Source of the DNA: a bacterium
Lineage (GTDB): Bacteria; UBP14; UBA6098; 4484-93
DNA length: 64,000 nt
Assembly: GCA_021158465.1 (NCBI GenBank)
Contig: JAGGUN010000027.1
Coordinates: 369-64,368 of the forward strand
Direction: 5' to 3'
A model generated the notes under the pieces. That model made no database searches and was not told the origin of the DNA. It saw nothing but the letters and a program-made list of their open reading frames with translations. Position numbers and translations under genes: made by a program. Positions 2,362 to 64,000 of the stretch are shown piece after piece (positions within the stretch are counted from its first letter, which is position 1; every line of letters begins with the position of its first letter).

Positions 2362-2402
2362 AAAAAATAACGCAACTATTGATCCACCATCAGGGAGAAA
2401 GA

Positions 2403-7531: not shown

Positions 7532-8075
7532 ACTCCGACTTTACATCTGCCCAGCTGACAGAAGAAGACGGAATGTCGGTCCAGCGGACAAGATACCACC
7601 AGTCATCATCCTCTTTACCAAGCTCAAACAACGCCATCCCCTCCGCAGGGGCAGACGATGTCGCAGAAGAACCCTCAACTATCAGGAGATACTCCCTGTA
7701 AAGGTTAGCAGTTTCCTCTCCTATGTAATCCTCGAAATCTTCCGGTATGGAAAGCTCAAGATAGATATACCCTGACTGGAACATCCTGCCAGTTACATCC
7801 TGTTCGACCGAGCAGTCCCAGAAAGCGAACAGCTCGGGATTGGCTAAACTATCCTCAGCCGATGCAGAAAAGGTAAACGAGTCCGATAAAACGGTCAAAA
7901 AGTTGGCAAGGTTCCTATCGGAATAAGACCAGTAGAGGTTACTCACAACCTTCTCCGGGCTGGTCGGCATCTCATAATGCCCAGAAGGTATAGAAGGCTG
8001 CTTAGGCTCCCGCGTAGAGAACGGGTCAACGCAGGATAGAAGAAAAAATACAAAGATTAAACTAACCCTCTTCAC
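7524..8075 (-). CDS. Hypothetical lipoprotein
   Basis: N-terminus MKRVSLIFVFFLLSC has a lipobox (LLSC). The start overlaps the stop of the upstream gene by 4 nt (ATGA), so it is likely co-transcribed with the Usp / pseudo-receiver genes. Confidence 0.45.
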   Translation of the reverse strand: MKRVSLIFVFFLLSCVDPFSTREPKQPSIPSGHYEMPTSPEKVVSNLYWSYSDRNLANFLTVLSDSFTFSASAEDSLANPELFAFWDCSVEQDVTGRMFQSGYIYLELSIPEDFEDYIGEETANLYREYLLIVEGSSATSSAPAEGMALFELGKEDDDWWYLVRWTDIPSSSVSWADVKSEFR

Positions 8076-10009: not shown

Positions 10010-10022
10010 CTCCTCCCCCTTT

Positions 10023-11840: not shown

Positions 11841-11978
11841 AATACTCCCCCATTTTTGGCTTCGCATCCGTTAAAATATAAACTAATCACCTTATATGTC
11901 AAGATAATATTTCTCTTGATTTTTATGCTGTTTTGATTAGGTTTTTATTGGATTTATAGCACAAAGGAGGACAAATCG

Positions 11979-48024: not shown

Positions 48025-48049
48025 TTTTGTATCTTATCTTCACTTAAGT

Positions 48050-49069
48050 ATGCGGGGAATAAGCCTCTTATCAATCCTCTCTTTTGCCCTTCTTGCGATC
48101 GGGTGCAGCGGGTATAAGCCCGACGCAATAGGGAGCTATAACGAACTTATAACCTTCGGCGACAGGGCAACGGTCGATTCTGTTAAGCCAGCCCTTATAG
48201 ATGTCTGGTGCAGAACCATCCGAACACCGCAGGAGGAGAAGCTATACCGAATAATCTGCAAGAAGCCGGAGGAATTCAAACATTACAAGAAATATCGGAA
48301 CCTGCTTTTAATAGGAAGAATTGGAGCTTATGACCCAATCTCCAGGATGGTGACAGAGGCACTTGATTCGGCAGCTCTCGAGGAGGCAAGGCTCGGCATC
48401 TCGTATATCTTCACCAAACAGGATATCTGGGCAAGGGGTCAGTTGGTTATATTTCTTGTCTCACCAGACGCAAATCTCCTGTCAGCAAACCTGATACACG
48501 ATAGAAGAGAACTATTCAGATATTTAGACCAATCGGTCAACGAGAGGCTGTCGGAATGGCTATACGACAAGGTCCAGGGAATGGGTGAGCAGTTTGAAAT
48601 CGAGGACTCGTTGAAAAAACTTTTCGGCTACTCCATCCGCATACCGAGAAACTTCTACATAGAGACGCTGTCGGACAACTTTGTCTGGCTACGAGCACTA
48701 TCCCCAGACAGGTGGGTGTTCATTTGGTTCACAGAGAAACCACCGGATAGCATGTCTATCAAGTGGTGGAGAGAAACAAGGGACAGCCTTTGTGCACTCT
48801 ATTATGAGGGGGACATCGTCGTTGCTGGAACAGAACAGCTGGAACAAACGGAGGGGTTAGGCGATAATCCTGTCTACAAGATAAGGTCGCTCTGGAAGAA
48901 CCCGCATTCCCTTCTGGGAGGACCAATACTTTCTTACATCCTCCACGATGAGAGAACAGGTAGACTGTATATAATCGATTGTGCTTTATTCGCTGCCGGC
49001 ACAAGGAAAGAACCGTACCTCAGGCATTTGCAGATAATAGCGGAAAGTTTCAGACCAGTTTCAGAATAG
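48050..49069 (+). CDS. Hypothetical lipoprotein
   Basis: Start at ATG 48050 gives MRGISLLSILSFALLAIGCSG with a lipobox (AIGC). Resembles Bacteroidota-type DUF lipoproteins, but with no confident assignment. Confidence 0.45.
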   Translation: MRGISLLSILSFALLAIGCSGYKPDAIGSYNELITFGDRATVDSVKPALIDVWCRTIRTPQEEKLYRIICKKPEEFKHYKKYRNLLLIGRIGAYDPISRMVTEALDSAALEEARLGISYIFTKQDIWARGQLVIFLVSPDANLLSANLIHDRRELFRYLDQSVNERLSEWLYDKVQGMGEQFEIEDSLKKLFGYSIRIPRNFYIETLSDNFVWLRALSPDRWVFIWFTEKPPDSMSIKWWRETRDSLCALYYEGDIVVAGTEQLEQTEGLGDNPVYKIRSLWKNPHSLLGGPILSYILHDERTGRLYIIDCALFAAGTRKEPYLRHLQIIAESFRPVSE

Positions 49070-49864
49070 CCTATTCGGGAGCTTACCTGTCGCCTGACCG
49101 AGAAGACGCTTGAACCTTAGCGCATCACCCGCCGCTTGACCATTGGTGCAGTTGTTGAAAAAAACAAAAAACTTCTCCGCCTTTTCCTCCAATCCGCCGA
49201 TATCGGAGACAAAGACAGCAAGCTCACTATCTGAGTATGAATAGTCATACCGCGCCTTTTCACCATCATACCAGTGGTTGCTTCTGCCGTGCAGTCTGAG
49301 GTACCCAAGATTCGATGCTACCTTCGGTATGTACGGGAAAAGCCTTGGAAGCGGCGGCTCATCAACAATGCAGTAGCCTATGCCCTTATCCCTTAAAAAT
49401 TCGAACGACCGCTCCTGCGCCCAGCTCGGGTTCCTGAACTCAACAACGAGAGGAAAAGGAGATAGTTTCTCTTTCAGAAGCTCGAGATAATCGAGCGACT
49501 TCTGCGAGAAGAAGAAATCCGGCGGCATCTGGGCAAGAAAGGCAGCGAGGCGTCCCGTCCCACCAAACGGCGAGAAAGAATCCTTGAACCTGTCAAGCTT
49601 CGGCTGAAGAGGACCAACAGTCCGCTCGTGTGTGAGACCCCTGTGGAGCTTGACAGTGAAGACAAAATCATCCGATGTCCGAGAAAGCATCGCCTCAAAC
49701 GAACGAGGCGAGGGAACAGAGTAGAACGTAAAGTTCAACTCCACACAGTCAAAACCAAGCACCTGCTCGTAATAGGTGAGAGCATCTTCACCCTTAATAT
49801 CTGGTGGATAAACTATCCCCTTCCAATCGGGGAACAGGAAACCGCTTGTGCCAACCCTTATCAT
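49061..49864 (-). CDS. DUF72 (UPF0759/YecE) family protein
   Basis: MIRVGTSGFLFPDWKGIVYP...LTYYEQVLGFDCVELNFTFYSVPS is the typical DUF72 N-terminus. The ATG overlaps the stop of the upstream cargo gene (ATGA). Confidence 0.75.
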   Translation of the reverse strand: MIRVGTSGFLFPDWKGIVYPPDIKGEDALTYYEQVLGFDCVELNFTFYSVPSPRSFEAMLSRTSDDFVFTVKLHRGLTHERTVGPLQPKLDRFKDSFSPFGGTGRLAAFLAQMPPDFFFSQKSLDYLELLKEKLSPFPLVVEFRNPSWAQERSFEFLRDKGIGYCIVDEPPLPRLFPYIPKVASNLGYLRLHGRSNHWYDGEKARYDYSYSDSELAVFVSDIGGLEEKAEKFFVFFNNCTNGQAAGDALRFKRLLGQATGKLPNRLF

Positions 49865-52557
49865 TTGAGAAGGAGAAGCCTCTTCACATCGGAAAAAGAT
49901 CCTGCCCTCATACGGCAGAAATAGACCCCAGAAGGCAGATTACCTGCATCCCATAGAACGGCATATCTCCCCGGTGCGGAGGGAGTCTGTCTGATGTCGG
50001 CAACCTTCTTACCCAGAATATCGAATATCTCAAGATGAACAGGAACAGCACCGGCAACCGTATACTCAATCCTGCAGACGGAGTTAAACGGATTCGGGAA
50101 AGCATCTTTCAGAGCAAATTCATAAGGTATACTCTCACCTACACCAAGCAATCTAAAATCGAGAAGAATTGCCGCAGTATCATACGGTTGAACAAGCTCG
50201 GTCTCACTGAGATAGACAAGCAGCGTCTCCGGCTCTGTATCTTCAACATAGACAACGGCACGCCCATCGGAGAACTCCGGGTCAGATGGAGTAAATCTTG
50301 CTGAACCGTCGGGGTTCCCCTCAAGCCAGTAAAGGTCAACAACACCATCATAAGGGAGAACCTCCTCACAGGATATATCCCTGATAGAGAAAACCAGAGA
50401 ATCGAGTGTGCTGTCAACCGAACAGACAGCTGGAACCTCATCCGGATAGACGAGTCCCAAAGAGATAAGCTCTGCATCATAGAAGATAGGCGATGGCTCA
50501 CCGTCAACAAGCGAGAAACTGATAGCGAGCGTCTCGGCATCGAGATTGGTGAACGCTATATGCCCGAAACCGGCTGTTATCGGAATGTAAGCCGTATCCA
50601 TATACGGCACAAAGGAGCCGTTCGGGTTCGATTCTGTAACAGAGAGAGCAACCGCTCCGCTCCAGAAGCTGTTTATTCCATCGTAAGTCATAAGTGCAAG
50701 CGTCCCCTCGACAGTCTCCCCCGCGATAAACCGCCCAGGGAGATCAAATGACACAAGAACCCCAGCACTCTCAAGACCCAAAAATGTCAGGGTCACCGGA
50801 GAGCTTGGCAGAAGAGAGCCTGTGGCACAAACATCTACCTCCTCCGCGACATCGTCGGAGATATAGAACAGTCCCATCCCGTTGGTAAGTGCAACCACTC
50901 CATCAGGCGGGATGACCTCGGCAGAGCCGGAAGCAGAGATGTTCACCAGCCCGGAGTAGGAGGTGTCTATCTCACCGGTCAGATTATTCACCGCACCAAC
51001 GGCAAGAGTAACGTCATCACCGACACGGAAGATACCCATACCGGACGAGAAAATCTTGTACTGATTCCCAGGCGACGACGACACACCGAAGAACTCAACC
51101 TCCCTCTCAACGGACTCATTGATATATCCACCCCCGAATATTCCGACCTCTCTTCTGTCCTTCGCAACAAGCGTCACACTTTGGGGGGTATCGGTTGTTA
51201 TGCCTACAAGACACTGCCCGTCCTCAAGCCAGATATATCCATCCGTCTCCTCATCGGAGTTGTGGTCGTAAAGTGTCAGGTCCACACCGTTCGCCTCGAG
51301 ATAATACCAGCCGGAGGCAGAAGCATCTACATTCCCCGCATAGTCTAAAATTCTCACTGTTGCAGGCAATTCACCTCCCACATACCAGCCAGCAGGAACA
51401 GATAGTCCGAGCCTTATTCCCCTTCCCTCAGGATAGAATGGTGAGCAGAAGATAAAAGGCGGGGCAAATGTTGAGTCGGAAAGCTCTATATCTACTATAA
51501 CACCGGCTGAATCGGGTTCTGTATCCTCGACGGCAAAACCACCAAAACCGCCTTCAAGCGTGAGCCAGCCGGCAGGTGAAACGGTCGCCGACTCCGAACC
51601 GGTTATATCAGTAATATGTGGGAGGAAATCGAGCTCACCATCAAAATGAACAGGCTCATACTCGCCCGACACAGTGAAAACAACGAATCTGTTCGGATAA
51701 CCGACTGTGCTCTGTGCACCGTAAGGAGAATATGCTGTAACGAGACACGGCTCATCGGGGGCGACGACGAGAACGGTAAACTCAGGAGAAGGAAGAAGCA
51801 TATCCTCCGAATCAGATACTGTCGAGTAAGCTTGAAGCCAGAGCGTCTCCGGTTCGCTGTCGGATATGGTAAAATAACCTGCACCTCCGAGCACCGTAAC
51901 ATCGACAGAATCACCAGACTCCCCGGAAAACAGGCTGGAAACAGCAGCAGAACCATCAGGATTGCTTTCCCTGAGAATCTTCACGGAGAAGATACCAGAA
52001 GCAAACCCCATCTCGCCCTCACGATAAGACGATGTAGGAACTCCCATAGCATCGACAGGCAAAACCCGATAGAAGGCAAAAGGCGAACCAGAAACAGGAT
52101 ACCTGTGTGAGCCATCGATTACAAGAGAAGTGGCATCTCCACCAGATGATAAGAACCTAAACGGGAAATAAGTTGATGGGGTAATCCTACCCCTCAAGTC
52201 GTAAACACGCACAAGGATATACTCTGCCTCCGTGTCGCCCATAAAGAGAAACGCTTCTCCTTCATCGAGTGTAACCTCATCAACAGGCGTGGAGAAATCC
52301 GGTGGAACAAAGAACTCAACACTGCCGTCAGGGTTCTCCTCTACTACATCGAAGGCAACACTGCCGGAGAAACTCGTATCCGTCTCTCCAGACAACCCCC
52401 TCGCAGAGACAATAATTATCGCCATATCACCACAGACAACCCGCTGTGTGAGGCTCGTAAGCGTCAAGTAACTCGCAGAAACAGTATCCGGCGGAGCGGA
52501 AAAGGCAGAGGAAAGATAAAAAAGCGACACAGAAAAAACCAGAAATACCTTCATCAT
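49861..52557 (-). CDS. Large secreted T9SS cargo protein (about 898 aa), hypothetical
   Basis: Start at ATG 52557 with a perfect SD (TAGGAGG, 7 nt, ATGATG). Signal peptide MMKVFLVFSVSLFYLSSAFSA. C-terminal Por secretion tail FPNPFNSVCRIEYTVAGAVPVHLEIFDILGKKV...SGVYFCRMRAGSFSDVKRLLLLK. Confidence 0.65.
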   Translation of the reverse strand: MMKVFLVFSVSLFYLSSAFSAPPDTVSASYLTLTSLTQRVVCGDMAIIIVSARGLSGETDTSFSGSVAFDVVEENPDGSVEFFVPPDFSTPVDEVTLDEGEAFLFMGDTEAEYILVRVYDLRGRITPSTYFPFRFLSSGGDATSLVIDGSHRYPVSGSPFAFYRVLPVDAMGVPTSSYREGEMGFASGIFSVKILRESNPDGSAAVSSLFSGESGDSVDVTVLGGAGYFTISDSEPETLWLQAYSTVSDSEDMLLPSPEFTVLVVAPDEPCLVTAYSPYGAQSTVGYPNRFVVFTVSGEYEPVHFDGELDFLPHITDITGSESATVSPAGWLTLEGGFGGFAVEDTEPDSAGVIVDIELSDSTFAPPFIFCSPFYPEGRGIRLGLSVPAGWYVGGELPATVRILDYAGNVDASASGWYYLEANGVDLTLYDHNSDEETDGYIWLEDGQCLVGITTDTPQSVTLVAKDRREVGIFGGGYINESVEREVEFFGVSSSPGNQYKIFSSGMGIFRVGDDVTLAVGAVNNLTGEIDTSYSGLVNISASGSAEVIPPDGVVALTNGMGLFYISDDVAEEVDVCATGSLLPSSPVTLTFLGLESAGVLVSFDLPGRFIAGETVEGTLALMTYDGINSFWSGAVALSVTESNPNGSFVPYMDTAYIPITAGFGHIAFTNLDAETLAISFSLVDGEPSPIFYDAELISLGLVYPDEVPAVCSVDSTLDSLVFSIRDISCEEVLPYDGVVDLYWLEGNPDGSARFTPSDPEFSDGRAVVYVEDTEPETLLVYLSETELVQPYDTAAILLDFRLLGVGESIPYEFALKDAFPNPFNSVCRIEYTVAGAVPVHLEIFDILGKKVADIRQTPSAPGRYAVLWDAGNLPSGVYFCRMRAGSFSDVKRLLLLK

Positions 52558-52567
52558 AATATACCTC

Positions 52568-53692
52568 CTATCCATAGATTCTTGAGTACTCCTCGAGCGA
52601 ATTTTCAACAAATAAGCGAACATTCTCGATGAAGTTTTTCTTGTCAAAACGGAGGACAGAGTTCCGCAAAAGCTCTGGCTCAAAGCTATACGGGTCAAAA
52701 TTCCTTATAACATCAACAATATCCTCTGTTCTTTGATGTGCAAAAAACTTGCCTGTTTTGCCAGGGAGAACGGTCTCAAGGACGCCTCCCTTCCCATATG
52801 CTATAACCGGTCTACCAGTAGCCAACGCCTCCACAGCCGTTATCCCAAAGTCCTCCTCCTGCGGAAAGATAAGCGCCTTCGCACGAGAGATCACCCTATA
52901 TTTCCCCTCATCAGAAAGCCAACCGGTGAACTCAACATTCGATGGCGCACAACGCCTAAGTTTCTTTTCCTCCTGACCCGAACCTATTATAACAAGCTTC
53001 TCATCAGGAAGATACCGAAAAGCATCCAACACAAGGTCAACCTTCTTGTAAGGAACAAGCCTCGACACAAGCACATAATAGTCGTCGATACCATCGGAGA
53101 GAGGAATCCCGTCAATATTCACAGGCGGATATATTACCTTGCTCTCCCTATTGTAGTATTTTTTTATCCTCCTTCTGACATTTTCGGAGTTTGCAATAAA
53201 GTAGTCGACCCGCTGGGCGGACAGATAGTCCCACATACGAAGATAATGAAATATATATGAGTAAGCAAGCTTCCTCGGAATATTCTTTGCATAAAACCCC
53301 TTATACTGGTAATAGAGTTCCCACGCCTGTCTCATAGGTGTATGGCAATAGCAGATATGGCAGGTCTCCTTCCGTGTCAAGACGCCCTTCGCCCAAAGGT
53401 ATGAAGATGATATGACAAGGTCATACTGCTCCAAGCGGAACTGTTCCACAGCAGCCGGATAAAGCAAAAGAAAATACTTATAGAGCCTTTTCTTGAACGG
53501 GATATACCTTGACCAACCAAGCTCAGTTATCTTCCAACTCTTGAACTCATCTGGCAGATTCTCCGGAATATAGATTATGCTGTACACATCACTGTCTGGG
53601 AATATGTCGTGCAGAGCGAGAAGAACCCTCTCAGCTCCGCCATACTCAGTCAGAAAATCGTGTATTAAAGCAACCCTCATCGCGCTAAACAT
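52568..53692 (-). CDS. Glycosyltransferase family 4
   Basis: MRVALIHDFLTEYGGAERV... N-terminus and GT4 E-x7-E motif EDFGITAVEALATGRPVIAY. Start at ATG 53692 overlaps the upstream stop (TAATG). Confidence 0.75.
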   Translation of the reverse strand: MFSAMRVALIHDFLTEYGGAERVLLALHDIFPDSDVYSIIYIPENLPDEFKSWKITELGWSRYIPFKKRLYKYFLLLYPAAVEQFRLEQYDLVISSSYLWAKGVLTRKETCHICYCHTPMRQAWELYYQYKGFYAKNIPRKLAYSYIFHYLRMWDYLSAQRVDYFIANSENVRRRIKKYYNRESKVIYPPVNIDGIPLSDGIDDYYVLVSRLVPYKKVDLVLDAFRYLPDEKLVIIGSGQEEKKLRRCAPSNVEFTGWLSDEGKYRVISRAKALIFPQEEDFGITAVEALATGRPVIAYGKGGVLETVLPGKTGKFFAHQRTEDIVDVIRNFDPYSFEPELLRNSVLRFDKKNFIENVRLFVENSLEEYSRIYG

Positions 53693-54876
53693 TAAATATA
53701 ATTCATCCGTCTTTCCTGTAAAGCATTTTCTATGACCTTGGAAATCTCTTCCAGACGCACTTCCCAAGAGTTCGCCTTTGCAAGAGCAATTCTCTTATTA
53801 CTCTTATCGGGCAACCTCTCCACAAGCGCTTCTCTTATATTCTCAACAAACTCATCGGAAGATCTACTTATATACACCAGATCCTGATAACCCTCAAGCG
53901 ACGGCAGGGAAGTCGCCACCACAGGCTTACCAGACGAAAGATACTCGAAGAGCTTCATAGGAAAAACAGAGAGCGTGTAATTATTCACGAGAAACGGAAT
54001 AAGACAAACATCAAACAGGCGAAGATAGGATGGAAGAACAGAATAATCCCTTTTGCCCAGAAGATAGATGTTGGAGAGATTAAGCATTGTTCTTCCTTTT
54101 CCCTCATCTGTCAACCCGACGGGTCCGATGAGGACAAAACTGACATCTGGGAGCCTCTCTGCCGCATACCGGACAAGAGAAAAATCGAATTTGTAGTCGT
54201 CCATTGCACCGAAGAAGCCTGCAATCGGGCGAGGAATACTCTTCATATCATCGGGTAGAGGCAAATCCTCCCGCGAACGCGAGAAATGGTGGTAATCCGC
54301 AACATTTGTCATAAGATAGATCCTTGGAGAGTATCTCTTCTTTGCATCCAAAAGAGACGAGGATGTAACAATGGTTATATCCGCGGACGAGAGAAATTTC
54401 CTCTCCATTTCTGTTATTCTATCCGATACTCCCGGGAATTGAGAGATGTCATCGACACAGTGGTAGAGCGTCAGCTTCTCGCCGAGCTTGCCACAGAGGA
54501 AGCAGCCGTTGGGCAGATAGCTCCAGAGGATCGGTGAAGAGAAGCGGAGCATTTGCTGGAGCAATTTTATATACATCATCAACAGCCAGTGATTTATCCG
54601 GTTTATCGCCGGACTATCATAGTAAGGAAGAATAACAGGAGAAAAGACATATACATTCCTCTGTGGCTTTTGGACAACGCCAAAAAACCTAAGTAGCCTC
54701 CGTATTATTCTCCTTATATCCCTTGAGGATGGAACAGGTCTCCTCAGACCAAGCGATTCGATATAGAGAACCCTGTTGCACTCAGCCAGCCGAGATGCAA
54801 TATGCTGCTTGTTTGTCCACAATGTCGCATCCCAGTCCGCAGAGGAAAGGATAATTATGTTCTCTCCTCGTATCAT
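53692..54876 (-). CDS. Glycosyltransferase (GT4-like, TuaH-like architecture)
   Basis: C-terminal GT-B motif VFPMKLFEYLSSGKPVVATSLPSL. N-terminal non-catalytic domain MIRGENIIILSSADWDATLW. Confidence 0.6.
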   Translation of the reverse strand: MIRGENIIILSSADWDATLWTNKQHIASRLAECNRVLYIESLGLRRPVPSSRDIRRIIRRLLRFFGVVQKPQRNVYVFSPVILPYYDSPAINRINHWLLMMYIKLLQQMLRFSSPILWSYLPNGCFLCGKLGEKLTLYHCVDDISQFPGVSDRITEMERKFLSSADITIVTSSSLLDAKKRYSPRIYLMTNVADYHHFSRSREDLPLPDDMKSIPRPIAGFFGAMDDYKFDFSLVRYAAERLPDVSFVLIGPVGLTDEGKGRTMLNLSNIYLLGKRDYSVLPSYLRLFDVCLIPFLVNNYTLSVFPMKLFEYLSSGKPVVATSLPSLEGYQDLVYISRSSDEFVENIREALVERLPDKSNKRIALAKANSWEVRLEEISKVIENALQERRMNYI

Positions 54877-55955
54877 TGTAGCACCTTCCCCCAGAAATAA
54901 GGGAAACTCTTCTCCGGCAGGAACTTCTCCTGATAGATCCTCCTCGCCCTGATGGAAAACTGCCGCCTTAAATAAGGATTACTTAGAAGAAGATATATCT
55001 TATTGTAAAGAGCTTCCTTATCCCCTACTGGGACAAGAAAACCTGACTTACCATCCACGACGACCTCGGATATTCCTCCAACATCCGTGGCAACAACCGG
55101 GATACCATATCCTGCTGCCTCAACAAGCGAAAGCGGGATCCCCTCCTGCAACGAGGGAAGCACCACAATCGTTGCAATAGCGTAAACATTTTGTATGTCT
55201 TCTACAAATCCAAGAAACTCGACATTCCTATCGAGATTAAGCTGGTTTACATACAGTTCAAGGAAATCTCTCCTGTCACCATCACCTGCAATAATAAGTT
55301 TTGTATCGGGGAAAGAGCGTATAATCAGTGGCAGAATATCAAGAACTACCTCTATGTTCTTTTCCTTCGACAGACGAGAAACAACTGCAATCGTTGGAAA
55401 CCGCTCCTTCCTTTCAATCGGATGAAGTGCAACACCAACTGATGCAAGGGAAATCTTACCTCTCGATAGACCCAACGCTATAAACCTTCTCCTACTCCTG
55501 TCCGAGAAGGTTATAACCCTCTTTGCTCGTGAAGCAGCTTTCCTATAAAGCATCATCGCAAAAGGGTTCTTTACGAATGCAGCAGGAGGAGGCGCATGCT
55601 CAACCCAGATAACCGGTACTCCAAGAGAAAAGGCGGGCAAAGATGCAAGAAGTTGCTCCTTCTTGTACTGCAAGATAACAATGTCAAACCCTTCTTCAAG
55701 CAGTCTCTTTATCCTCTTTTGGTAAAATCTCCACCCGATGATAAGGTCGAGAATTGTCTTTCTGCCAAGCTTCGGACCTATATCGAATATCCGCTTCTCA
55801 ACAGGCACATTATCCGGGATAAGCGAAAGCAGATGCGGCTTTGCAGCAATGGTCAGTTTTCCTTTTTCCTGCGGGAAGAATCCGATAGATTCAATGACAA
55901 ATTTCTCTGCCCCGCCAACGGTATCTGTATTCAATATCCAGATGATTCGTCTCAT
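54873..55955 (-). CDS. Glycosyltransferase family 4
   Basis: MRRIIWILNTDTVGGAEKF... and LPSLQEGIPLSLVEAAGYGIPVVATDVGGISEVV. Confidence 0.75.
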   Translation of the reverse strand: MRRIIWILNTDTVGGAEKFVIESIGFFPQEKGKLTIAAKPHLLSLIPDNVPVEKRIFDIGPKLGRKTILDLIIGWRFYQKRIKRLLEEGFDIVILQYKKEQLLASLPAFSLGVPVIWVEHAPPPAAFVKNPFAMMLYRKAASRAKRVITFSDRSRRRFIALGLSRGKISLASVGVALHPIERKERFPTIAVVSRLSKEKNIEVVLDILPLIIRSFPDTKLIIAGDGDRRDFLELYVNQLNLDRNVEFLGFVEDIQNVYAIATIVVLPSLQEGIPLSLVEAAGYGIPVVATDVGGISEVVVDGKSGFLVPVGDKEALYNKIYLLLSNPYLRRQFSIRARRIYQEKFLPEKSFPYFWGKVLQ

Positions 55956-57163
55956 CTACCGCCCTCGATAAGGTAGCCCAATATATCGGCAAGACGCTTA
56001 GCCTGATTTTTCCTGTTAAATCTCTCGTATACTTTTGGGTCAGGGGAAAACTCACAGGATTCTATCATCTTTGATAACTTATCCGCAATATCGGCTACAT
56101 CGCTACATCTTGCTACGATGCCGAGGTTGTATCTCTCAATCAATTCCTTTGCCTCATTCTTTTCTGGCAAGAGAGCGAATATCGGTCGGCGTGCACCGAT
56201 ATACTCGAAGAGCTTCGATGGCAAGAGTTGACCACAGGACTGACAATCGGGCACCATAAGTAAAAAAGCGGAGGCTTGTTCCATCACACGGTATATTTCA
56301 CTGTGCGGACGAGGAGAAAGCGATTTCACTATCTCTCCAAGATCTTCTTTCTTAACCAGCCTGCTAAATTCATCTGTTGTCTGCCCGACAAACAGAGCCT
56401 CAAAGTTATCTTTCGTTAATATTCCTTTTCTCTTGAGCTTGCTTACAGCAAGCAGGAGATTATCCGCTCTCATCGTCCGGGAAATTGTGCCTGTATAGAG
56501 CATAGAAAACTTACCCGATTGACCAAGCCTCTTATCGCCGAAATCATCGGGGTCAAACCCGTTCGGGATAAAGACAACCTTCTCAGCAATATTATACTTC
56601 GAGATAAAATAGTCCGCTATACCCCTCATCGCAGTCAGGATGACATCTGCATTCTCCGCGATAGATTGCTCGAGCCTGGCATCATATCTTCTCCTCCAGA
56701 ACGGGGCAGAATAAAAAGGATGCGATAAGAACCCATCACGGAAGTCAGCTACCCAAGGAATACCAAACCTCTGTTTTAATTGTAGAGCGACCCAGTGAGC
56801 AGTCGGGAGTGGGTGAGTTGAAAAGATTATATCGATTCGGTTCTCCCTGAACGCCTTCTTCGCCAGACGAAGATATCTTAGGTTACGCAGGGGTTTCCCA
56901 ATTGAGCTAATATTATCAATCGATGGGGATAATCGATAAATTGTTGCCTCCCTCACGTCGTCAAGGAGGGATTCGTCGATATAGGCTCTCTTGAAGTAGC
57001 CCTTATCGAGTGAGACAATAACAGGTTGGTAGCCGAACTCTGGCAGGTACTTTACGAACTTTGCCATCCTGATTGTTCCAGCACCTCCAACAGGCGGAGC
57101 AGAAGCAGATATAACAAGTAGACCAAGCATTTCCCACCTCAGCCGAAATACTGCCTCATCCAC
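55952..57163 (-). CDS. Glycosyltransferase (GT4-like)
   Basis: VISASAPPVGGAGTIRMAKFVKYL (N-terminal GT4 Gly-rich loop) and C-terminal LPSKLFEYIGARRPIFALL. Confidence 0.6.
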   Translation of the reverse strand: MDEAVFRLRWEMLGLLVISASAPPVGGAGTIRMAKFVKYLPEFGYQPVIVSLDKGYFKRAYIDESLLDDVREATIYRLSPSIDNISSIGKPLRNLRYLRLAKKAFRENRIDIIFSTHPLPTAHWVALQLKQRFGIPWVADFRDGFLSHPFYSAPFWRRRYDARLEQSIAENADVILTAMRGIADYFISKYNIAEKVVFIPNGFDPDDFGDKRLGQSGKFSMLYTGTISRTMRADNLLLAVSKLKRKGILTKDNFEALFVGQTTDEFSRLVKKEDLGEIVKSLSPRPHSEIYRVMEQASAFLLMVPDCQSCGQLLPSKLFEYIGARRPIFALLPEKNEAKELIERYNLGIVARCSDVADIADKLSKMIESCEFSPDPKVYERFNRKNQAKRLADILGYLIEGGR

Positions 57164-59052
57164 AGCTCAAGGTTGAACAGTCTCCAGATATTCCCGGAGG
57201 GAATGCGAGACCGCCCTTCAACAAACGCCTCATAATACCCTCTCAGCTCGTCCGGATACACAAATTCCGAAATCCTCAGGTTCTTATCCGAGAAGATGTC
57301 CCGTATCCAGTCCCTCAGCTCGTCCTTGAGCCATATCTCTTGGGGCGTAACAAACCCCATCTTGTCCTTTCTATTCCTTATAATATCGGGTAATATTCCT
57401 CTCATCGCCTCACGCAGGACATACTTCGTCCAGCCGTTGTTTATCTTGAATACTGCCGGGAGCGAAAACACAAACTCGACAAGCCTGTAGTCGAGGAAAG
57501 GGAGGCGGGATTCAATAGAGTATGCCATCGAGCTTCTGTCCTCGAAACGGAGAAGTCTTGGCAAACTGTAAAAAAGTGTATCCTGCATAAGCTTCGTCTG
57601 AAGATTTCTTCTGTTCACCTGCTCGAGATAATGTCGGAAACGGATACTGTGCTTTCTTGCAAAATCCTCTCTGATGACCCCCGTAAGGCTTATCGGATTG
57701 AAGGCATCTCGTAGAAGGTTCTTCAGGGAGCTCGGCAGGAGGGTAAATCCTATAAATGCGAACTCGATATGAAGTTTCTTTTTGTTATTTTTTATATGTT
57801 CATAATAAAACGGGAACTCGTGCAGAAACTTCCCTATATGGGCTTCCCTGATGAGCTGTATTATAAATGTTCGGTAGTATGGTGCATATCCTGCGAGCAT
57901 CTCGTCGGAGCCCTGCCCATCGAGGACCACCTTGACGCCACATCTTCTGGCGAGCTTGAACACATTCCACTGGGCATACATACTCGTTCCACCTATCGGC
58001 TCATCCTGATGATAAATAAGACGGTCCATTTCTTCCAGCAGTTCATCAGATTTCGGGAATATCCAGTTTCGCTCAGCCCCTGTTATCTTGATTACAACAT
58101 TTGAGTATCTCCTCTCATCGAAGCGTGGGTCATCGAAGCAGGAGGAAAATGTTTTCAGATGTTCACCGACAAGCGATCTGTCGAGCAGATGCTCATCTAT
58201 GAGCAGTTTGTTTGCCACCATAACTACCGTCGATGAGTCAACTCCACCGGAGAGGCAAGCACCAACAGGCACATCAGAGCGCAGACGAAGCCTGACAGAA
58301 TCAAAAAAGAGCTCCCGCAACCGCTCGAATATCTCATCAGCATCAAGACCACCACAGATGGAACGAGAATTGTAGTCAAGCTCCCAGTATCTGTCAAAAC
58401 TTATACCACTCGAGTCCAGCAGAAGGTTTGTCCCAGGAGAAAGCTTTTTTATCCCCTTAAAGAATGTCTCATCGTTGTAGTCCAATCCCGCCCAGACGAG
58501 ATAGTCATATACTATTCCACTGTTTATAACCTTCGGAACATTCGGATGAACGATAAGAGACTTAATCTCCGAGGCGAAGAGAAAAATCTTACCATCTCTA
58601 AAGAAATAGAAAAGCGGTTTTATCCCGAGGCGGTCTCTCGAGAGGAAAAGCGTTTTCGCATCCTTATCCCATATAGCAAAAGCCCACATACCGTTGAAAC
58701 GCTTGACACAGTCCCTCCCCCACCTATCATATGCGGCAAGTATAACCTCTGTATCGGTTCTCGAGCGGAACTTATACCCCTCTTTCTCAAGCTCTTCCCG
58801 AAGCTCGATATAGTTGTATACCTCACCGTTGAGCACGATCGTGTATCTTCCATCGAGATACTGCATCGGCTGATGCCCGGCATCTGTCAGGTCGAGGATG
58901 GAAAGCCTCCTGTGTGCAAGACCGAGATTCTCGTCTATAAATATTCCGGCATCATCTGGTCCCCTGTGTATCAGGGTATCACGCATCCTGATAAGGAGCC
59001 TCCTGTCAACAGGAGAACCATCAAGATTAAATATACCTACTATTCCGCACAT
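57139..59052 (-). CDS. asnB: Asparagine synthase (glutamine-hydrolysing) family amidotransferase
   Basis: N-terminal nucleophile MCGIVGIF, GATase-2 domain, and PP-loop synthetase domain (ACLSGGVDSSTVV). In polysaccharide loci this class often amidates sugar uronates. Confidence 0.85.
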   Translation of the reverse strand: MCGIVGIFNLDGSPVDRRLLIRMRDTLIHRGPDDAGIFIDENLGLAHRRLSILDLTDAGHQPMQYLDGRYTIVLNGEVYNYIELREELEKEGYKFRSRTDTEVILAAYDRWGRDCVKRFNGMWAFAIWDKDAKTLFLSRDRLGIKPLFYFFRDGKIFLFASEIKSLIVHPNVPKVINSGIVYDYLVWAGLDYNDETFFKGIKKLSPGTNLLLDSSGISFDRYWELDYNSRSICGGLDADEIFERLRELFFDSVRLRLRSDVPVGACLSGGVDSSTVVMVANKLLIDEHLLDRSLVGEHLKTFSSCFDDPRFDERRYSNVVIKITGAERNWIFPKSDELLEEMDRLIYHQDEPIGGTSMYAQWNVFKLARRCGVKVVLDGQGSDEMLAGYAPYYRTFIIQLIREAHIGKFLHEFPFYYEHIKNNKKKLHIEFAFIGFTLLPSSLKNLLRDAFNPISLTGVIREDFARKHSIRFRHYLEQVNRRNLQTKLMQDTLFYSLPRLLRFEDRSSMAYSIESRLPFLDYRLVEFVFSLPAVFKINNGWTKYVLREAMRGILPDIIRNRKDKMGFVTPQEIWLKDELRDWIRDIFSDKNLRISEFVYPDELRGYYEAFVEGRSRIPSGNIWRLFNLELWMRQYFG

Positions 59053-60167
59053 CCGAGAACCCTTTCATATAGTTCAAGTAATTTCTTCTCCTCATTTTCC
59101 CAGCAGAAAAGATGCTTCTTCTCGTGCATATTCCTCTTAACAAGATTGTAGAAATTCCTATCGAAGGCAAGACGCTTTACAGCGGAGACGACAGCATCCG
59201 TATCGTTCGGGTCAACGGCTGCTCCAAAGCCATATTTCTCAACAAATTTCTTCATCTCAGGGGCATCGGAAACGACCATAGGCAGTTCCGCAAGTATGAA
59301 ATCGAAGAACTTGTTGGGCAGGCTAAAGTGTATATCAACATCGTTTGTATCGGGTAGATAAAATCCGATGTCCGCAGATGCTGTCGCCTCGAGAAGCTCA
59401 TATTCCGGCTCGAGGAAACCGAGGTAAAACACATTTCCACCGGCAAACCTCTCAAGCATAGCAGGTCCAGCAAGAGCCAGAACAAAAGGCTTGCCAACAA
59501 GATGGGCAATCTTTACCATCCTTTCAATCCCACGGGATGGGCTATATCCTCCCTGATGGAAGAGGATTATACTTTCATCCGGCAAGCCGAGTTGCTCCCT
59601 TATAAAGTCGCATTTCTTGACCTCCGTATATTCCCTCGTGTTCAAAATGGAAAGAGGAGTCCTCTCGAGACGATGCACCCTTTTTAGTTCCTGTGCCAGA
59701 AGACCGCTAACGGTAATAACAGCATCTGCTTTCCCAATGTATTTTCTCTCACCCATTCTGGCGAAGGTATACGCAATATTGTATTTTAAGCTACGCTTTG
59801 TCCTCGGCTTGAAGAATACATCGTGTGCATCGTAAATAAGCTTCGCATTATCCCTTTTTGCAAGCCTATATCCAAACGGCAGTGTCGGGGCGTCGTGGCA
59901 ATGATACAAATCAAAATGCTTATCCTTGAAAAAACGATACAATGTTTTTATCGCTGCAATCCTCTTGTGTGGATAAAGCGATGTTGGAAACGCGTCATCG
60001 AATATCCTGTATACTATGAAATTTCCCTTATCCTCAAAACTCGATTGACTCTCCCTTTTACCCATAACAATCGTAACATCATATCTCTTCGAAAGGCTTC
60101 TTGCCTCCTTCCAGACACGATAGTCTACATCCTCTCTGGAGAAAAGTAGCATAGCAACAGTCTTCAT
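59040..60167 (-). CDS. Glycosyltransferase family 4
   Basis: Start at ATG 60167, immediately after the upstream stop, gives MKTVAMLLFSREDVDYRVWKEARSL.... C-terminal GT-B motifs are present. The ORF-track 58-aa Cys-rich N-terminal extension overlaps the PHP gene and is rejected. Confidence 0.65.
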   Translation of the reverse strand: MKTVAMLLFSREDVDYRVWKEARSLSKRYDVTIVMGKRESQSSFEDKGNFIVYRIFDDAFPTSLYPHKRIAAIKTLYRFFKDKHFDLYHCHDAPTLPFGYRLAKRDNAKLIYDAHDVFFKPRTKRSLKYNIAYTFARMGERKYIGKADAVITVSGLLAQELKRVHRLERTPLSILNTREYTEVKKCDFIREQLGLPDESIILFHQGGYSPSRGIERMVKIAHLVGKPFVLALAGPAMLERFAGGNVFYLGFLEPEYELLEATASADIGFYLPDTNDVDIHFSLPNKFFDFILAELPMVVSDAPEMKKFVEKYGFGAAVDPNDTDAVVSAVKRLAFDRNFYNLVKRNMHEKKHLFCWENEEKKLLELYERVLGCAE

Positions 60168-60865
60168 AAGTGCGACCTCTCCGCCGTCCTCATAACGGTT
60201 CGGGCAAACTTGAACGGTGCCAGAATATCCCCTGTTTTCGCAATCTTGACAACAGCAGATAACGGAACATAAACCATTGAAGAACCCCTTGGTGTCAATA
60301 TCCTCCTCGGAGAACTCATAAGAGCATTTTTCAGGTTGCACTCGGTCATATCCCCGTCAAAATCAAGCTCAACAATTGTCCTGAATAACTCGCATTCGAA
60401 GTGAGCATCTATCCCGGAGAGCGCAGGTTTGCCAAACCTTCTTGCAAGATTATATGCCTTCCTGTTATCCGAGGGTAATACCCTTGCATTGTAAGTCTCG
60501 ATCATATCGCAAGACCTTACCAAATCTTCCGTCAAGATGTGCGCCCTATACGGGTGAGCAAGAAGCGTTATCCCACCCTGCTTATGCACCTCACAGATAA
60601 AATCCTCCCACCTCCGGCTCTTTATCTCATCCCTTATGAAGATCGCTATGATGTCACCCGCATCGGTCAGGTATTCCGCTGCAATCGGAATGATAATACC
60701 TGTGTCATTTATCTTGTTTGCCATAACGGAACCCGCTATCGTGTCGTGGTCGGAGATTATGAGTAGGTCAATCCGCTCTTCCTTTGCCCTTTTAAGAACC
60801 TCAACAATCGAGAGATACGAGTCGTAGGAGAAATGCGTATGTATGTGCGATGCAACCCTTATCAT
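60164..60865 (-). CDS. PHP-domain metal-dependent phosphoesterase (CpsB/YwqE-like)
   Basis: MIRVASHIHTHFSYDS...LLIISDHDTIAG (PHP H-x-H and DHD motifs). Confidence 0.6.
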   Translation of the reverse strand: MIRVASHIHTHFSYDSYLSIVEVLKRAKEERIDLLIISDHDTIAGSVMANKINDTGIIIPIAAEYLTDAGDIIAIFIRDEIKSRRWEDFICEVHKQGGITLLAHPYRAHILTEDLVRSCDMIETYNARVLPSDNRKAYNLARRFGKPALSGIDAHFECELFRTIVELDFDGDMTECNLKNALMSSPRRILTPRGSSMVYVPLSAVVKIAKTGDILAPFKFARTVMRTAERSHL

Positions 60866-62142
60866 CTTCCGATAAAGAACGAGAGTTTAACCTTATTTAT
60901 CTTCAGAAATCCTATAAAATATATAATAAATGTCGGGATAAATGAGATGCTCGATGCAACACCTGCACCGACGATGCCATATCTCGGTATCAAGAAAAAG
61001 TTCAAAGGGATGTTGAGAGCCAGCCCGACAACTGTTCCAACAGGATGATACCAAGGATACCCCTTCCCAGCGAGGTTCTCGGCAAGTGGTGATGTAACAG
61101 TCTGCAGTATCACCCTCGGTGTGAGCGCAAGTAGCGCAGGATAAGAGGCAATGAACCTCTCTCCAAACAGACCACCGATTAACCACTTAAAGAACCAAGG
61201 CAAAGCAAAGACGAGCATTCCAGTGACAACAGAGATAGAACCAAATACCCAGAAAAGCTTGCGGACAAGGAAAAGCGTCTTTCCCGTTTTATCCGATGAT
61301 ACCTTGGGGAAGAGAACAATCCCTGCGTATTTGGGCAATCGTCCTGCCATCTCGATAAGGTTCACGGCAAGAGCATACAGTCCGACATCGTATGCCCCAC
61401 CACCGAGATATGCGATAAGATAAAAATCTGAACGGAGAAGCAGTAGACCAGCTAAGTTGGAGACGAGTGACCGTGAACCGGTGGAAAGCAACTGCCCAAC
61501 AAACCATCTCGCTTCCCTGCCAAAATCCAAGACAATCTTGAACCCCTTCTGAAAAAGATAGAGGTTCGCAACAAAAACAACCACGAACGAGAGGACAGCA
61601 GAAGAAAGAGCGGTCGTCACGGTAAGCCTACCCGTGAAGTAGAGCAGAACTATCGCCGGAACATAGACAAAAAGAAGCCTAAACAGAGCAGAAAGGTTAT
61701 ATACAACAAACTCTTGCAAGCCGAGAAAGATTGTCCTTATGTTCGTATTCCAGATGGTAAGAAGCGTAAAGAAGAAAAGCAAAATCCGCCAGTAGGGGTG
61801 GATGACAATATCGCTTTTGGGGAAAAGAAGCCTGACAATTCCATTCCCCCAGAAACCGACGAGAAACGCCAAAACAGCAGCAGATACCAAACCTATCAAA
61901 ACCGAAGCAGAGAATATCTGGGAGAGCTTCTCCCTATGTCCTCCGATGTGGACGACAAGCGAGCCCGAGAGCCCAAACCCCAAAACCAGCGCAAGAATTC
62001 CACCGGTCGAAAGTATAAGCGACAACGCTCCCTTCCCGGCAGGACCGAGTGCACGAGCAACGAGAATAGATGCTACAAAGTTTAAGGCGAGTATCGCTAC
62101 CTGCGTGCCGGTCGTCAAAAGAAAGGCATGGCGAAACCTCAA
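60862..62142 (-). CDS. Polysaccharide biosynthesis protein / Wzx-like oligosaccharide flippase (MOP superfamily)
   Basis: About 12 TM helices. N-terminus MRFRHAFLLTTGTQVAILALNFVASILVARALGPAGKGALSLI is typical of Wzx/RfbX. Confidence 0.7.
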   Translation of the reverse strand: MRFRHAFLLTTGTQVAILALNFVASILVARALGPAGKGALSLILSTGGILALVLGFGLSGSLVVHIGGHREKLSQIFSASVLIGLVSAAVLAFLVGFWGNGIVRLLFPKSDIVIHPYWRILLFFFTLLTIWNTNIRTIFLGLQEFVVYNLSALFRLLFVYVPAIVLLYFTGRLTVTTALSSAVLSFVVVFVANLYLFQKGFKIVLDFGREARWFVGQLLSTGSRSLVSNLAGLLLLRSDFYLIAYLGGGAYDVGLYALAVNLIEMAGRLPKYAGIVLFPKVSSDKTGKTLFLVRKLFWVFGSISVVTGMLVFALPWFFKWLIGGLFGERFIASYPALLALTPRVILQTVTSPLAENLAGKGYPWYHPVGTVVGLALNIPLNFFLIPRYGIVGAGVASSISFIPTFIIYFIGFLKINKVKLSFFIGR

Positions 62143-62855
62143 ACCTGCCCCCCAATAAGGTCATCCATAGTGTAATACCCCGGTGGCTTGCCTGCCAGAA
62201 ACCGAACCGCACGGAGCGCACCATCGGCGAATACCCTCCGCGAAATAGCACGATGCGAAAGAGAAAGTAGCTCATTCCCGCAACCGAATATCACCCTGTG
62301 GTCACCAGGAACCTCACCCAATCTGAGCGAGTGAACGGGAATCTGCTCTTTTTTCTTCTCCTCTATAACCTGCGCAAGCATCTTTGCCGTCCCACTCGGA
62401 GCATCCTTCTTGTGGATATGATGAACCTCTTCTATCTCAATCTGAGAACCGGGAAGAAGTTCAGCCGCAACAGCAACCAACCTCATCAAGACCGCCACTC
62501 CAATGCTAAAATTAAACGATTGAAAAACAGGAATCTCCTTTCCAGCCGTCCTAAACCGCTCAACTTCTTTATCCGTCAAGGATGTGGAACCCGACACAAT
62601 CGGAAGATGGTTCCTCTCACAAAACGACAGCGCATACAATGCTCCCTCTCTGCCCGAAAAGTCGATAACCACATCAACATTAGGAACACTCAAGACATCA
62701 GGCAGGAAAACAGAGACTCTCTCCCCAAGGAAAAAGACTGGAGAAGGCTTCCTGTCAATACCTGCAACAGGTTTTATATCCTGCGTAGCTTCCATCGCCC
62801 GCAATAGCTCATTCCCCATCCTACCAGATATCCCCCAGATTGCAACTCTTATCAT
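62139..62855 (-). CDS. dapB: 4-hydroxy-tetrahydrodipicolinate reductase DapB
   Basis: MIRVAIWGISGRMG (NAD(P)-binding) and E-x-H-H-x-x-K-x-D-x-PSGTA motif (EEVHHIHKKDAPSGTA). Start at ATG 62855. Confidence 0.85.
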   Translation of the reverse strand: MIRVAIWGISGRMGNELLRAMEATQDIKPVAGIDRKPSPVFFLGERVSVFLPDVLSVPNVDVVIDFSGREGALYALSFCERNHLPIVSGSTSLTDKEVERFRTAGKEIPVFQSFNFSIGVAVLMRLVAVAAELLPGSQIEIEEVHHIHKKDAPSGTAKMLAQVIEEKKKEQIPVHSLRLGEVPGDHRVIFGCGNELLSLSHRAISRRVFADGALRAVRFLAGKPPGYYTMDDLIGGQV

Positions 62856-62859
62856 ACCT

Positions 62860-64000
62860 TTACCCTCCATACCTATAAAGCCATCTCGAGGCATATCTTC
62901 TCCTTATGTCATCCTCCGGTGCAAGCTCCAGGAAACGCTGGAAGCTTCTTCTCGTCTTATCCAGCTCACCCAGCCTCGCATACACAACACCAAGGTAGAA
63001 GTGGCTCTCGGGGAAGTCAGGAGAGATACTCACAAGCTTAAGATAGATATTCCTCGCTGATTCGTAATCACCAAGAGCAGCATAGCAAGCTCCAAGAGCA
63101 GATAAGAACTCAGGTGATTTCCTGCCCTCAGATGCAAGCCTTTCCAGCAGTTTCTTCGCCTCGATATAGTTCCCGTTGTTAAAAAAATTTAGTCCTTTAA
63201 CCCAGATATCTTCCAAGGTAACCTTCCGAGAGGCAACCTGCTGCTTCATAGAGTCAATCTTTTCAAGCAAACTATCGGAGCAAATCCTCTCTGCAGTGTC
63301 GATGAGGGCAATCTCCCTCTCTGGATAAACTTTCATACTGTCGAGGCATTCAATCAAGAGCAGAAGGTTATCGCAGTAAGGATTTTCAGTATACGATTTC
63401 TCAGCAAATACGGATGCAAGGTAGAAATCCTTTCTGAAGAAGTATTCCTGCGCAAGCCCGAGATAAAGCGTATCAACAGGTGCTCCGATAAGAGTGAGCC
63501 TTTCAATCTGCCTTTCGGCAAGCCCAAGCTCACCACTGACAAGATGACGCCAGAAGAGATTGTTCAAAAACCGAACGACACCATTCTTATCAGAAAGATT
63601 ATCGACGAGATGATACATCCTGCACCAGGTCCAGTCGGAGGAAAATTCAGTCGACTTCAGCATCTGAGTATCGGGGGATTCACCAAGAAGCACAAGCGAA
63701 GAATAGAGCAGACAAGCAGCAGAATCGGAGGATGGAGAAAGAAAACAGACAAGCGAATCAAGCTTCCCCTGCCGGAAAAGGTTCTTCGCCCGCACAAACT
63801 CCGCATCCTTCTGAGGAACATAAGCAAGCAGATTCTCGGATGCCTCATACGAGCCAAGAACAGAATATATATCCGCCTTCTGGACAGCTACGAGAGAGGA
63901 ATCCTCTGCCTCGGATTCAATCTCAGAAAGCGAAGAGAGCGCCTTAAAATATTCACCACGGATGAGATAATCCCTCACAAGCAGGCGATGCAAACCAATA
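62860..64000 (-). CDS. TPR-repeat protein (5' end beyond window)
   Basis: Multiple TPR units (e.g. SALGACYAALGDYESARNIYLKLVSISPDFPESHFYLGVVYARLGELDKTRRSFQRFLELAPED). The frame is still open at the window edge. Confidence 0.55.
   Translation of the reverse strand, partial: IGLHRLLVRDYLIRGEYFKALSSLSEIESEAEDSSLVAVQKADIYSVLGSYEASENLLAYVPQKDAEFVRAKNLFRQGKLDSLVCFLSPSSDSAACLLYSSLVLLGESPDTQMLKSTEFSSDWTWCRMYHLVDNLSDKNGVVRFLNNLFWRHLVSGELGLAERQIERLTLIGAPVDTLYLGLAQEYFFRKDFYLASVFAEKSYTENPYCDNLLLLIECLDSMKVYPEREIALIDTAERICSDSLLEKIDSMKQQVASRKVTLEDIWVKGLNFFNNGNYIEAKKLLERLASEGRKSPEFLSALGACYAALGDYESARNIYLKLVSISPDFPESHFYLGVVYARLGELDKTRRSFQRFLELAPEDDIRRRYASRWLYRYGG

Follow-up and report, generated by a model that had tools for sequence, protein, structure and literature searches.

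The minus-strand gene cluster of approximately 15 kb between position 49061 and the end of a 64,000-nt bacterial sequence (contig JAGGUN010000027.1 of GenBank assembly GCA_021158465.1, positions 369 to 64,368; this whole stretch is called the window below) combines a Wzx-type flippase and five glycosyltransferases (GTs) with a gene for an 898-aa type IX secretion system (T9SS) cargo protein. Our analysis did not support the original prediction that the cluster makes a cargo-specific glycan together with its substrate, as the glycan genes other than the last transferase gene (GT4e), as well as the neighboring DUF72 gene, never accompany the cargo family in other contexts. The reading that we tentatively prefer, and would not yet call probable, is that an unpolymerised glycan made by the locus is used for O-glycosylating periplasmic and surface proteins in general, the cargo being one of many clients. 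The locus itself is a further Wzx-dependent oligosaccharide locus of a known type and fairly ordinary. A cargo-dedicated pathway would have tied a glycan to one T9SS substrate, which the evidence does not carry; what remains includes a WbaZ-like GT4 that is found paired more than once with members of a small family of T9SS surface proteins with seven Ig domains.

Families were assigned by Pfam and NCBIfam profile searches of the window proteins. From 49061 to the window end, 12 co-directional genes were found at the coordinates and with the families that had been predicted, and all 11 same-strand junctions are overlaps or gaps of at most 13 nt, so the predicted gene order and tight junctions hold, with some corrections. 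In the order of the minus strand, the window part of the cluster comprises the C-terminal tetratricopeptide repeat (TPR) half of an 811-aa membrane and TPR protein (62860..64000, running off the window end, with TPR Pfam matches; the whole gene lies at L084:5571-8006); dapB for dihydrodipicolinate reductase (62139..62855, alternative start 62894; DapB_N E 1e-19, DapB_C E 3e-40); a Wzx-type flippase of the MOP family (60862..62142; TTG start overlapping the dapB stop, Polysacc_synt 55.7 bits vs cutoff 28.2, 9 predicted transmembrane segments); a PHP-domain metallohydrolase (60164..60865; weak PHP and PHP_C matches, and a CehA/McbA-like match below cutoff); GT4a (59040..60167; Glyco_transf_4 and Glyco_trans_4_4); an AsnB-family, WbpS-like glutamine amidotransferase (57139..59052; Asn_synthase and GATase, TIGR01536 at 484.7 bits, above cutoff); GT4b (55952..57130; Pfam GT4 domains); GT4c (54873..55955; Glycos_transf_1 E 2.5e-43); GT4d with a TuaH-like C-terminal half (53692..54876; Glyco_trans_1_4, and TuaH E 5e-32, below cutoff); the WbaZ-like GT4e (52568..53692; Pfam matches and WbaZ-1, PDB 2f9f, E 1e-23); the T9SS type-A cargo (49861..52557; PF18962 and TIGR04183 above cutoffs); and the final gene, DUF72 (YecE-like; 49061..49864; PF01904 E 2e-59). 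A convergent plus-strand gene for a DUF4837 lipoprotein (47996..49069; PF16125) bounds the string and overlaps the DUF72 3' end by 9 nt.

Two of the corrections concern single junctions. The junction between the PHP gene and GT4a, previously described as TAA/ATG, is an ATGA overlap. The 25-nt overlap assigned to GT4b stands only with an alternative GTG start at 57163; the ATG at 57130 is the likelier start and gives an 8-nt gap, with the Shine-Dalgarno (SD)-like sequence GAGGTGGG. The cargo start was described correctly: its ATG (52557) follows the GT4e stop after a 10-nt gap and is preceded, at a distance of 6 nt, by GGAGG; this SD sits within the GT4e 3' end, where GGAGG overlaps the stop codon. 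The cargo and DUF72 genes are joined by the predicted ATGA overlap. All five locus transferases are GT4 proteins (Glyco_transf_4 / Glycos_transf_1), none of the locus proteins gave a Glycos_transf_2 match in Pfam or NCBIfam, and polytopic proteins other than Wzx and the membrane-TPR protein are absent. The amidotransferase gene, two genes from Wzx, scored 440 bits against TIGR03108 (eps_aminotran_1), below its cutoff of 816.9, and its product probably amidates a uronic acid.

Linkage of the cargo family to glycan genes was judged from the seven independent contexts in which the family was seen (L092, L142/L143, L144, L089, L088, L090/L091, and L093). In L092, a GT4e orthologue (48% identity over the full length, E 4e-130) ends 1 nt before a 27%-identical cargo homologue, whose SD again lies within the last codons of the transferase; divergent genes and no other glycan gene stand upstream of this pair, and pdxA stands downstream. 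No GT adjoins the cargo homologue in three further contexts, where it is preceded by a divergent mgsA and followed by comEC (L142/L143), preceded by tsaD, a hypothetical gene and metE (L144), or preceded by a HEPN/MNT toxin-antitoxin pair (L089); a non-homologous WecA/epimerase/GT2/GT4 cluster lies 4-10 kb from the homologue in L144. The contigs of L088, L090/L091, and L093 are cut at the cargo 5' end. Five contigs (L087, L088, L090, L091, and L093) end in or just before the 5' part of the cargo-family gene, with sample 3300017593 contributing two contigs of the same locus; differences between strains, or an upstream repeat that breaks the assembly, may account for these ends.

Wzx, AsnB, PHP, GT4a-d and DUF72 were never beside the cargo family in the contexts seen. 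The place of DUF72 downstream of cargo homologues is taken by pdxA or comEC, and the nearest non-sister DUF72 homologues (52 and 49% identity) adjoin alpha-amylase and his genes, not cargo or GT genes. In L089, L142/L143, and L144 the cargo gene is unlinked to the locus, which is an outcome that the original prediction had itself named as refuting it, and this applies to the locus as a whole; the pairing with GT4e is kept in L092. GT4e appears to be the only glycan gene with a conserved tie to the cargo, and this tie is weakly supported, by one independent replicate. In addition, the cargo gene runs into pdxA with a 4-nt overlap in L088, L090, and L092, which indicates that functionally meaningless adjacency persists in these lineages.

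The interior genes of the locus keep other company. AsnB homologues directly preceded by a GT4a homologue occur in Patescibacteria, Nanoarchaeia and Chloroflexi, and AsnB homologues directly followed by a GT4b or GT4d homologue occur in other genomes. Such GT4a-AsnB and AsnB-GT4b/GT4d pairs (L002, L003, L004, L011, and others) were seen in Bacteroidota and Ignavibacteria as well, as widely shared two-gene glycan modules. The best genome matches of AsnB, at no more than 47% identity, come from Patescibacteria, archaea, Chloroflexi and others, with no relative of the host among them, and the Patescibacteria, archaea and Chloroflexi that bear these interior modules carry no T9SS label.

Adjacency of a cargo gene to a gene cluster is often to be expected here because cargo genes are abundant: at least 6 of approximately 48 window genes (∼12%, about one in eight) code for a type-A sorting domain that exceeds the cutoff (2379-6593, 9041-10030, 11979-14261, 14319-15752, 43528-45375, and 49861-52557). 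Other cargo genes are also tightly joined to unrelated genes; for example, a C25 peptidase gene is followed after 11 nt by a response-regulator/GGDEF gene. This 1404-aa peptidase (2379-6593; next gene at 6605-7531) combines a propeptide with CarboxypepD_reg domains and ends in a type-A sorting domain. Although related to PorU, it scores only 92.6 bits where the PorU cutoff is 420, and is the only protein in the window that resembles T9SS machinery.

Regarding the destination of the glycan, Wzy, Wzz or another polysaccharide co-polymerase (PCP), and an initiating phosphoglycosyltransferase were not found in the 64-kb window or in the ∼6.9 kb upstream on L084, and no protein of the window or L084 gave a Bac_transf or WecA-type match. 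The original prediction had made the same observation for the window and had taken the pathway to be incomplete; a flippase without a polymerase is better read as a locus for an unpolymerised oligosaccharide than as a fragment. We then counted the Bacteroidota O-glycosylation sequon D-(S/T)-(A/I/L/V/M/T), with expectations from shuffled sequences. The 11 exported window proteins (9-2288, 2379-6593, 7524-8075, 9041-10030, 10023-11867, 11979-14261, 14319-15752, 41376-43526, 43528-45375, 47996-49069, and 49861-52557) contained 85 sequons against 31.9 expected, an observed/expected ratio (O/E) of 2.66 (z 9.9), compared with 1.05 for the 29 cytoplasmic window proteins and 0.7-1.35 for six control motifs. 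The sequon-richest protein is a Kazal-domain protein (41376-43526; 19 vs 4.6 expected). The cargo family as a whole reached an O/E of 2.73, with some sites conserved, and the window cargo lies at its low end (1.7).

An automated repeat of the count gave O/E values of 2.80 for the window, 2.06 for the cargo-family loci, 1.69 for Ignavibacteria/Chlorobi loci and 3.4 for Bacteroidota (two proteins only), and of 1.01 for Chloroflexi, 0.79 for Archaea and 0.62 for mixed other phyla; controls outside the Fibrobacteres-Chlorobi-Bacteroidetes (FCB) group ranged overall from ∼0.4 to 1.3, and the larger control sets from 0.6 to 1.0. Enrichment of the sequon has been reported mainly in Bacteroidota (PMC12871550). 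Judged by these counts, the host very probably glycosylates its exported proteins at this sequon and would need a glycan locus of such a type. The lack of a polymerase and chain-length regulator together with the sequon-rich exported proteins makes general O-glycosylation the likeliest destination of the glycan. The sequences clearly indicate selection on the sequon in the exported proteins of this lineage, which is far removed from cultured Bacteroidota; this is a lead, not a result, and bears on where the general O-glycosylation system arose.

On this reading of general O-glycosylation, the locus would assemble an oligosaccharide on undecaprenyl in a Wzx-dependent manner, with one flippase, five cytoplasmic GT4 enzymes, an amidotransferase and a PHP hydrolase. 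The WbpS-like amidotransferase would turn a uronic acid into a uronamide, and the whole string of at least 20 kb would be transcribed together. The flipped oligosaccharide would stay unpolymerised and go to exported proteins at their sequons. The cargo would then be a T9SS-exported surface protein and not the dedicated substrate of the whole pathway, and its position would reflect the abundance of cargo genes, tight packing and an older pairing with GT4e.

Two systems of the FCB group are known whose loci make a single unpolymerised oligosaccharide, namely the Bacteroides LFG (locus for glycosylation) of general protein O-glycosylation and the Porphyromonas A-LS pentasaccharide treated below. 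The LFG locus opens with a transcriptionally linked metG, continues with wzx and variable GTs, closes with a GT2 fucosyltransferase and has no polymerase (PMC12871550, PMC8698959). In this locus and in the present one, a housekeeping gene leads directly into wzx and then into a run of GT genes without wzy, wzz or an initiating transferase, and the exported proteins of the host are enriched in D-(S/T)-(A/I/L/V/M/T) (PMC12871550). In contrast to the LFG locus, however, the lead gene here is dapB, not metG (PMC8698959), the five transferases are all GT4 and a terminal GT2 fucosyltransferase of the BF4306 family is missing (PMC8698959), an AsnB-like amidotransferase and a PHP hydrolase lie inside, and the run is extended by a T9SS cargo gene and by DUF72; moreover, the host is a deep-branching FCB-like bacterium and not a member of Bacteroidota. 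The locus is LFG-like in layout and is not an LFG member.

Several points weigh against general O-glycosylation as the purpose of the locus. First, nothing ties this locus itself to protein glycosylation, and another locus in the genome could supply the glycan. Second, the two missing features, metG as lead gene and the terminal BF4306-type GT2 fucosyltransferase, are defining features of the LFG locus. Third, the sequon count covers 11 exported proteins of one window chosen by a home-made signal-peptide rule, and the window cargo is only modestly sequon-rich (8 vs 4.3 expected, z ∼2). Fourth, GT4e and cargo are paired again in L092, where the SD is likewise placed at the transferase stop, so that some specific transferase-cargo link may exist. 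Finally, a cluster of Wzx, GT4 and AsnB genes equally fits an O-antigen or exopolysaccharide (EPS) unit with Wzy and initiator elsewhere.

We consider this last alternative rather unlikely. It takes the cluster as an ordinary O-antigen/EPS repeat-unit locus served by a Wzy and a WbaP/WecA-type initiator elsewhere, with the cargo and DUF72 genes as unrelated neighbors. The gene content is generic; NCBIfam gave only sub-threshold matches to EPS, teichuronic-acid and PEP-CTERM transferases; the interior modules are common to many phyla; and cargo genes are frequent enough for chance adjacency. Like Wzx/Wzy loci such as Salmonella rfb with WbaZ, the locus combines Wzx with several GT4 genes, and the best solved relative of GT4e is the WbaZ-type O-antigen mannosyltransferase. 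Unlike those loci, it lacks genes for Wzy, Wzz, sugar-nucleotide synthesis and an initiating transferase, and even the 64 kb of the window together with the ∼6.9 kb upstream gave no Wzy, Wzz/PCP, export or initiating gene. An O-antigen/EPS role would also leave the strong sequon signal unused, and the GT4e-cargo adjacency seen again in L092 speaks against it.

A dedicated two-gene module, in which GT4e is specific to the Ig-repeat cargo and adds, for example, a marking or anchoring sugar, appears improbable to us; the idea of a cargo-specific glycan would then hold for GT4e only. The L092 pair argues for it, since GT (48%) and cargo (27%) stay together with a 1-nt gap and an SD in the GT 3' end despite different flanks and no other glycan gene upstream. 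This is, however, a single independent replicate, the pair is absent from L142/L143, L144, and L089, and the equally well kept order of cargo and pdxA in L088, L090, and L092 shows that neutral synteny persists. GT4e is moreover a soluble cytoplasmic enzyme, whereas the cargo is exported by Sec. When metagenome contigs were scanned with an alignment of the GT4e pair, homologues of 35-44% identity stood alone beside housekeeping genes (polA-type exonuclease, ftsH, dnaA, and hrcA), and in these contigs a cargo-family or sorting-domain gene was never found 3' of them. This suggests a housekeeping glycolipid role for the GT4e-type subfamily. Contigs L096-L105, which look like parts of small genomes, carry stand-alone genes with the GT4e-type N-terminus HDxLxxxGGAExVLxALHDIFPDAP.

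We judge it similarly improbable that the product is a T9SS anchor glycan, that is, an unpolymerised linker like the A-LS of P. gingivalis, which sortase would join to the cargo C-terminus after removal of the sorting domain, thereby tethering the cargo to lipopolysaccharide (LPS). In P. gingivalis (porR-porS-wbpS), the flippase gene porS adjoins the AsnB-like wbpS, whose product forms the uronamide of the linking sugar (PMC7468200); the A-LS linker, one pentasaccharide that is not polymerised, tethers T9SS cargo to LPS and is made by an initiator and three GTs (PMC13086638). The linking sugar, a 2,3-diamino uronic one, requires the Wbp (A/B/D/E) and Vim (A/E/F) enzymes in addition to WbpS (PMC7468200, PMC13086638). 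The present locus is comparable in that it unites Wzx with a TIGR03108-related AsnB and five GTs without Wzy, its product would likewise be unpolymerised, the host has many type-A cargo proteins for which such an anchor would be required, and the window encodes a sorting-domain C25 peptidase related to PorU. In contrast, homologues of WbpA/B/D/E, VimA/E/F and WbaP were not found among the locus and window proteins scanned, the amidotransferase stays below the TIGR03108 cutoff (440 vs 816.9) with its closest relatives in Patescibacteria, archaea and Chloroflexi, and the C25 protein falls far short of the PorU cutoff (92.6 vs 420). Furthermore, the anchor genes of Porphyromonas are scattered and not beside cargo genes, whereas the glycan genes here are clustered and adjoin one. 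The notion that the locus is a horizontally transferred island was rejected, as GC content at third codon positions is uniform (0.45-0.57) across locus and flanks and the lower GC of the GT genes is confined to codon positions 1 and 2.

The 811-aa protein upstream of dapB deserves attention in the reading of general O-glycosylation. At least 9-10 transmembrane segments are predicted within its residues 1-373, and only the C-terminal half is TPR; the 59-aa first loop carries FLTFDDPDLILNNP, with FDD at residues 31-33. The TPR half contains 7 sequons against 1.07 expected (P < 0.001), and the membrane half none. Since sequon richness marks extracytoplasmic proteins in this host, the TPR domain is probably periplasmic. 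With an N-terminal multi-spanning domain of ∼400 aa, an acidic motif in a long first loop and a C-terminal TPR domain of ∼400 aa that is probably extracytoplasmic, the protein would resemble in architecture the protein O-mannosyltransferases TMTC1-4 and TMEM260 (PMC10214176). Unlike these proteins, which combine GT-C and TPR parts, it gave no GT-C profile match, and the likeness is one of architecture read from sequence only; residues 1-440 had no Pfam, NCBIfam or PDB sequence match even at E ≤ 10, and none to PMT_2, DUF1736, DUF2723 or solved GT-C enzymes. By analogy, the protein is a candidate periplasmic transferase, no more.

The oligosaccharyltransferase and ligase of the Bacteroidota O-glycosylation system were still undiscovered in 2025 (PMC12871550), and a candidate membrane-TPR enzyme in the string of the flippase bears on this missing transferase as a lead, not a result. 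A wider proposal, which we regard as a long shot, is that the lineage runs a Bacteroidota-type sequon-directed O-glycosylation with one string encoding UppP recycling, a membrane-TPR transferase or ligase, the flippase, the GTs and a heavily glycosylated Ig-repeat client. If this were true, the membrane-TPR protein would be a concrete candidate family for the Bacteroidota-type oligosaccharyltransferase or ligase.

The string does not open with the TPR protein as originally described; its TPR domain was confirmed, but the gene runs past the window end and the string continues through DnaE and BacA/UppP. On the source contig (103.8 kb), the genes for BacA/UppP, DnaE (1136 aa), the membrane-TPR protein and dapB successively overlap, the first two at L084:1421-5583, upstream of the window end. 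The coupled string thus measures at least 20 kb and at least 14 genes, in which functions in the envelope glycan stand together with replication (DnaE), lysine synthesis (dapB) and DUF72. As DnaE, dapB and DUF72 belong to the same overlapping string, tight spacing is no sign of shared function here. Outside this run, 63% of the window's same-strand junctions (17 of 27) measure at most 13 nt, so the locus run is tighter than its surroundings; between convergent genes, the distance is 1 nt or the ends share 8-9 nt. Tight spacing is a property of this compact genome and not a pathway mark.

Co-transcription of the glycan genes, the cargo and DUF72 is plausible, given that the junctions have no intergenic space and no terminator-like site. 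Consensus scans returned 24 promoter-like sites (17.6 expected) and 24 terminator-like sites (16.3 expected), none of them at junctions; for an internal promoter or terminator at GT4e/cargo, these numbers were uninformative, and this candidate was dropped. A terminator-like hairpin with a T-run lies at 49900-49920 (minus strand) inside the sorting-domain coding region of the cargo, ∼36 nt before the DUF72 start, and such sites are within chance number. tRNA and Rfam scans of the window gave no match.

The identity of the cargo as a T9SS type-A protein, as originally predicted, was borne out by two sorting-domain models, PF18962 (32.5 bits vs cutoff 27) and TIGR04183 (30.8 bits vs cutoff 23; residues 820-895). 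A Sec signal peptide, MMKVFLVFSVSLFYLSSAFSAPP, is predicted at its N-terminus by a hydrophobicity rule only, and residues 1-25 are helical with low pLDDT in the model. The AlphaFold model, built with an alignment of distant homologues, is confident and all-beta (pLDDT 82, pTM 0.72) and suggests about seven tandem Ig/macroglobulin-like beta-sandwich domains and the C-terminal sorting domain. Foldseek searches of the PDB with this model gave generic tandem-Ig matches only, and the self-BLAST of the cargo printed no off-diagonal matches; only motifs and the model reveal the repeats.

An exact look-up of the cargo protein returned no record, and a word-indexed search gave only the 92% sister and sorting-domain matches, which made the protein look like an orphan. 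This was rejected when an exhaustive HMMER search with the domain-free part of the cargo against 1.84 billion representatives found approximately 28 colinear full-length homologues (880-950 aa, 25-32% identity), all of them with a sorting domain; their label is "[bacterium]" or, once, Zixibacteria. Family members occur in assemblies GCA_016930435.1, GCA_016935765.1, GCA_030642425.1, GCA_030628695.1 and GCA_964485885.1 and in a Zixibacteria metagenome-assembled genome (MFP4459677.1). By these searches, the cargo family appears small, with about 30 distant members.

The host belongs to a deep, almost unsampled FCB-like lineage outside Bacteroidota. RecG (45946-47946), searched against 5.8 billion proteins, matched the source contig at 100% and a sister at 88%, and then many phyla at no more than 38% identity, and gave no taxonomic placement; for DUF72, identity falls from 96 to 52%. 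Such a deep and sparsely sampled lineage makes an ordinary synteny comparison impossible. The sister strain (L001) has the same gene order and is too close to be informative; its cargo is 92% identical, more than RecG (88%) or GT4c-e (86-90%). The host was seen in several samples, with an identical PHP protein on 13 contigs.

Finally, a long division and cell wall (dcw) cluster, from mraZ and rsmH to ftsA and ftsZ, occupies 15754-36318 on the minus strand of the window, as assigned by open reading frame sizes and N-terminal sequences only. In L088 and L090, too, only a few genes separate the cargo homologue from an mraZ downstream of it, a hint of distant synteny on a large scale.

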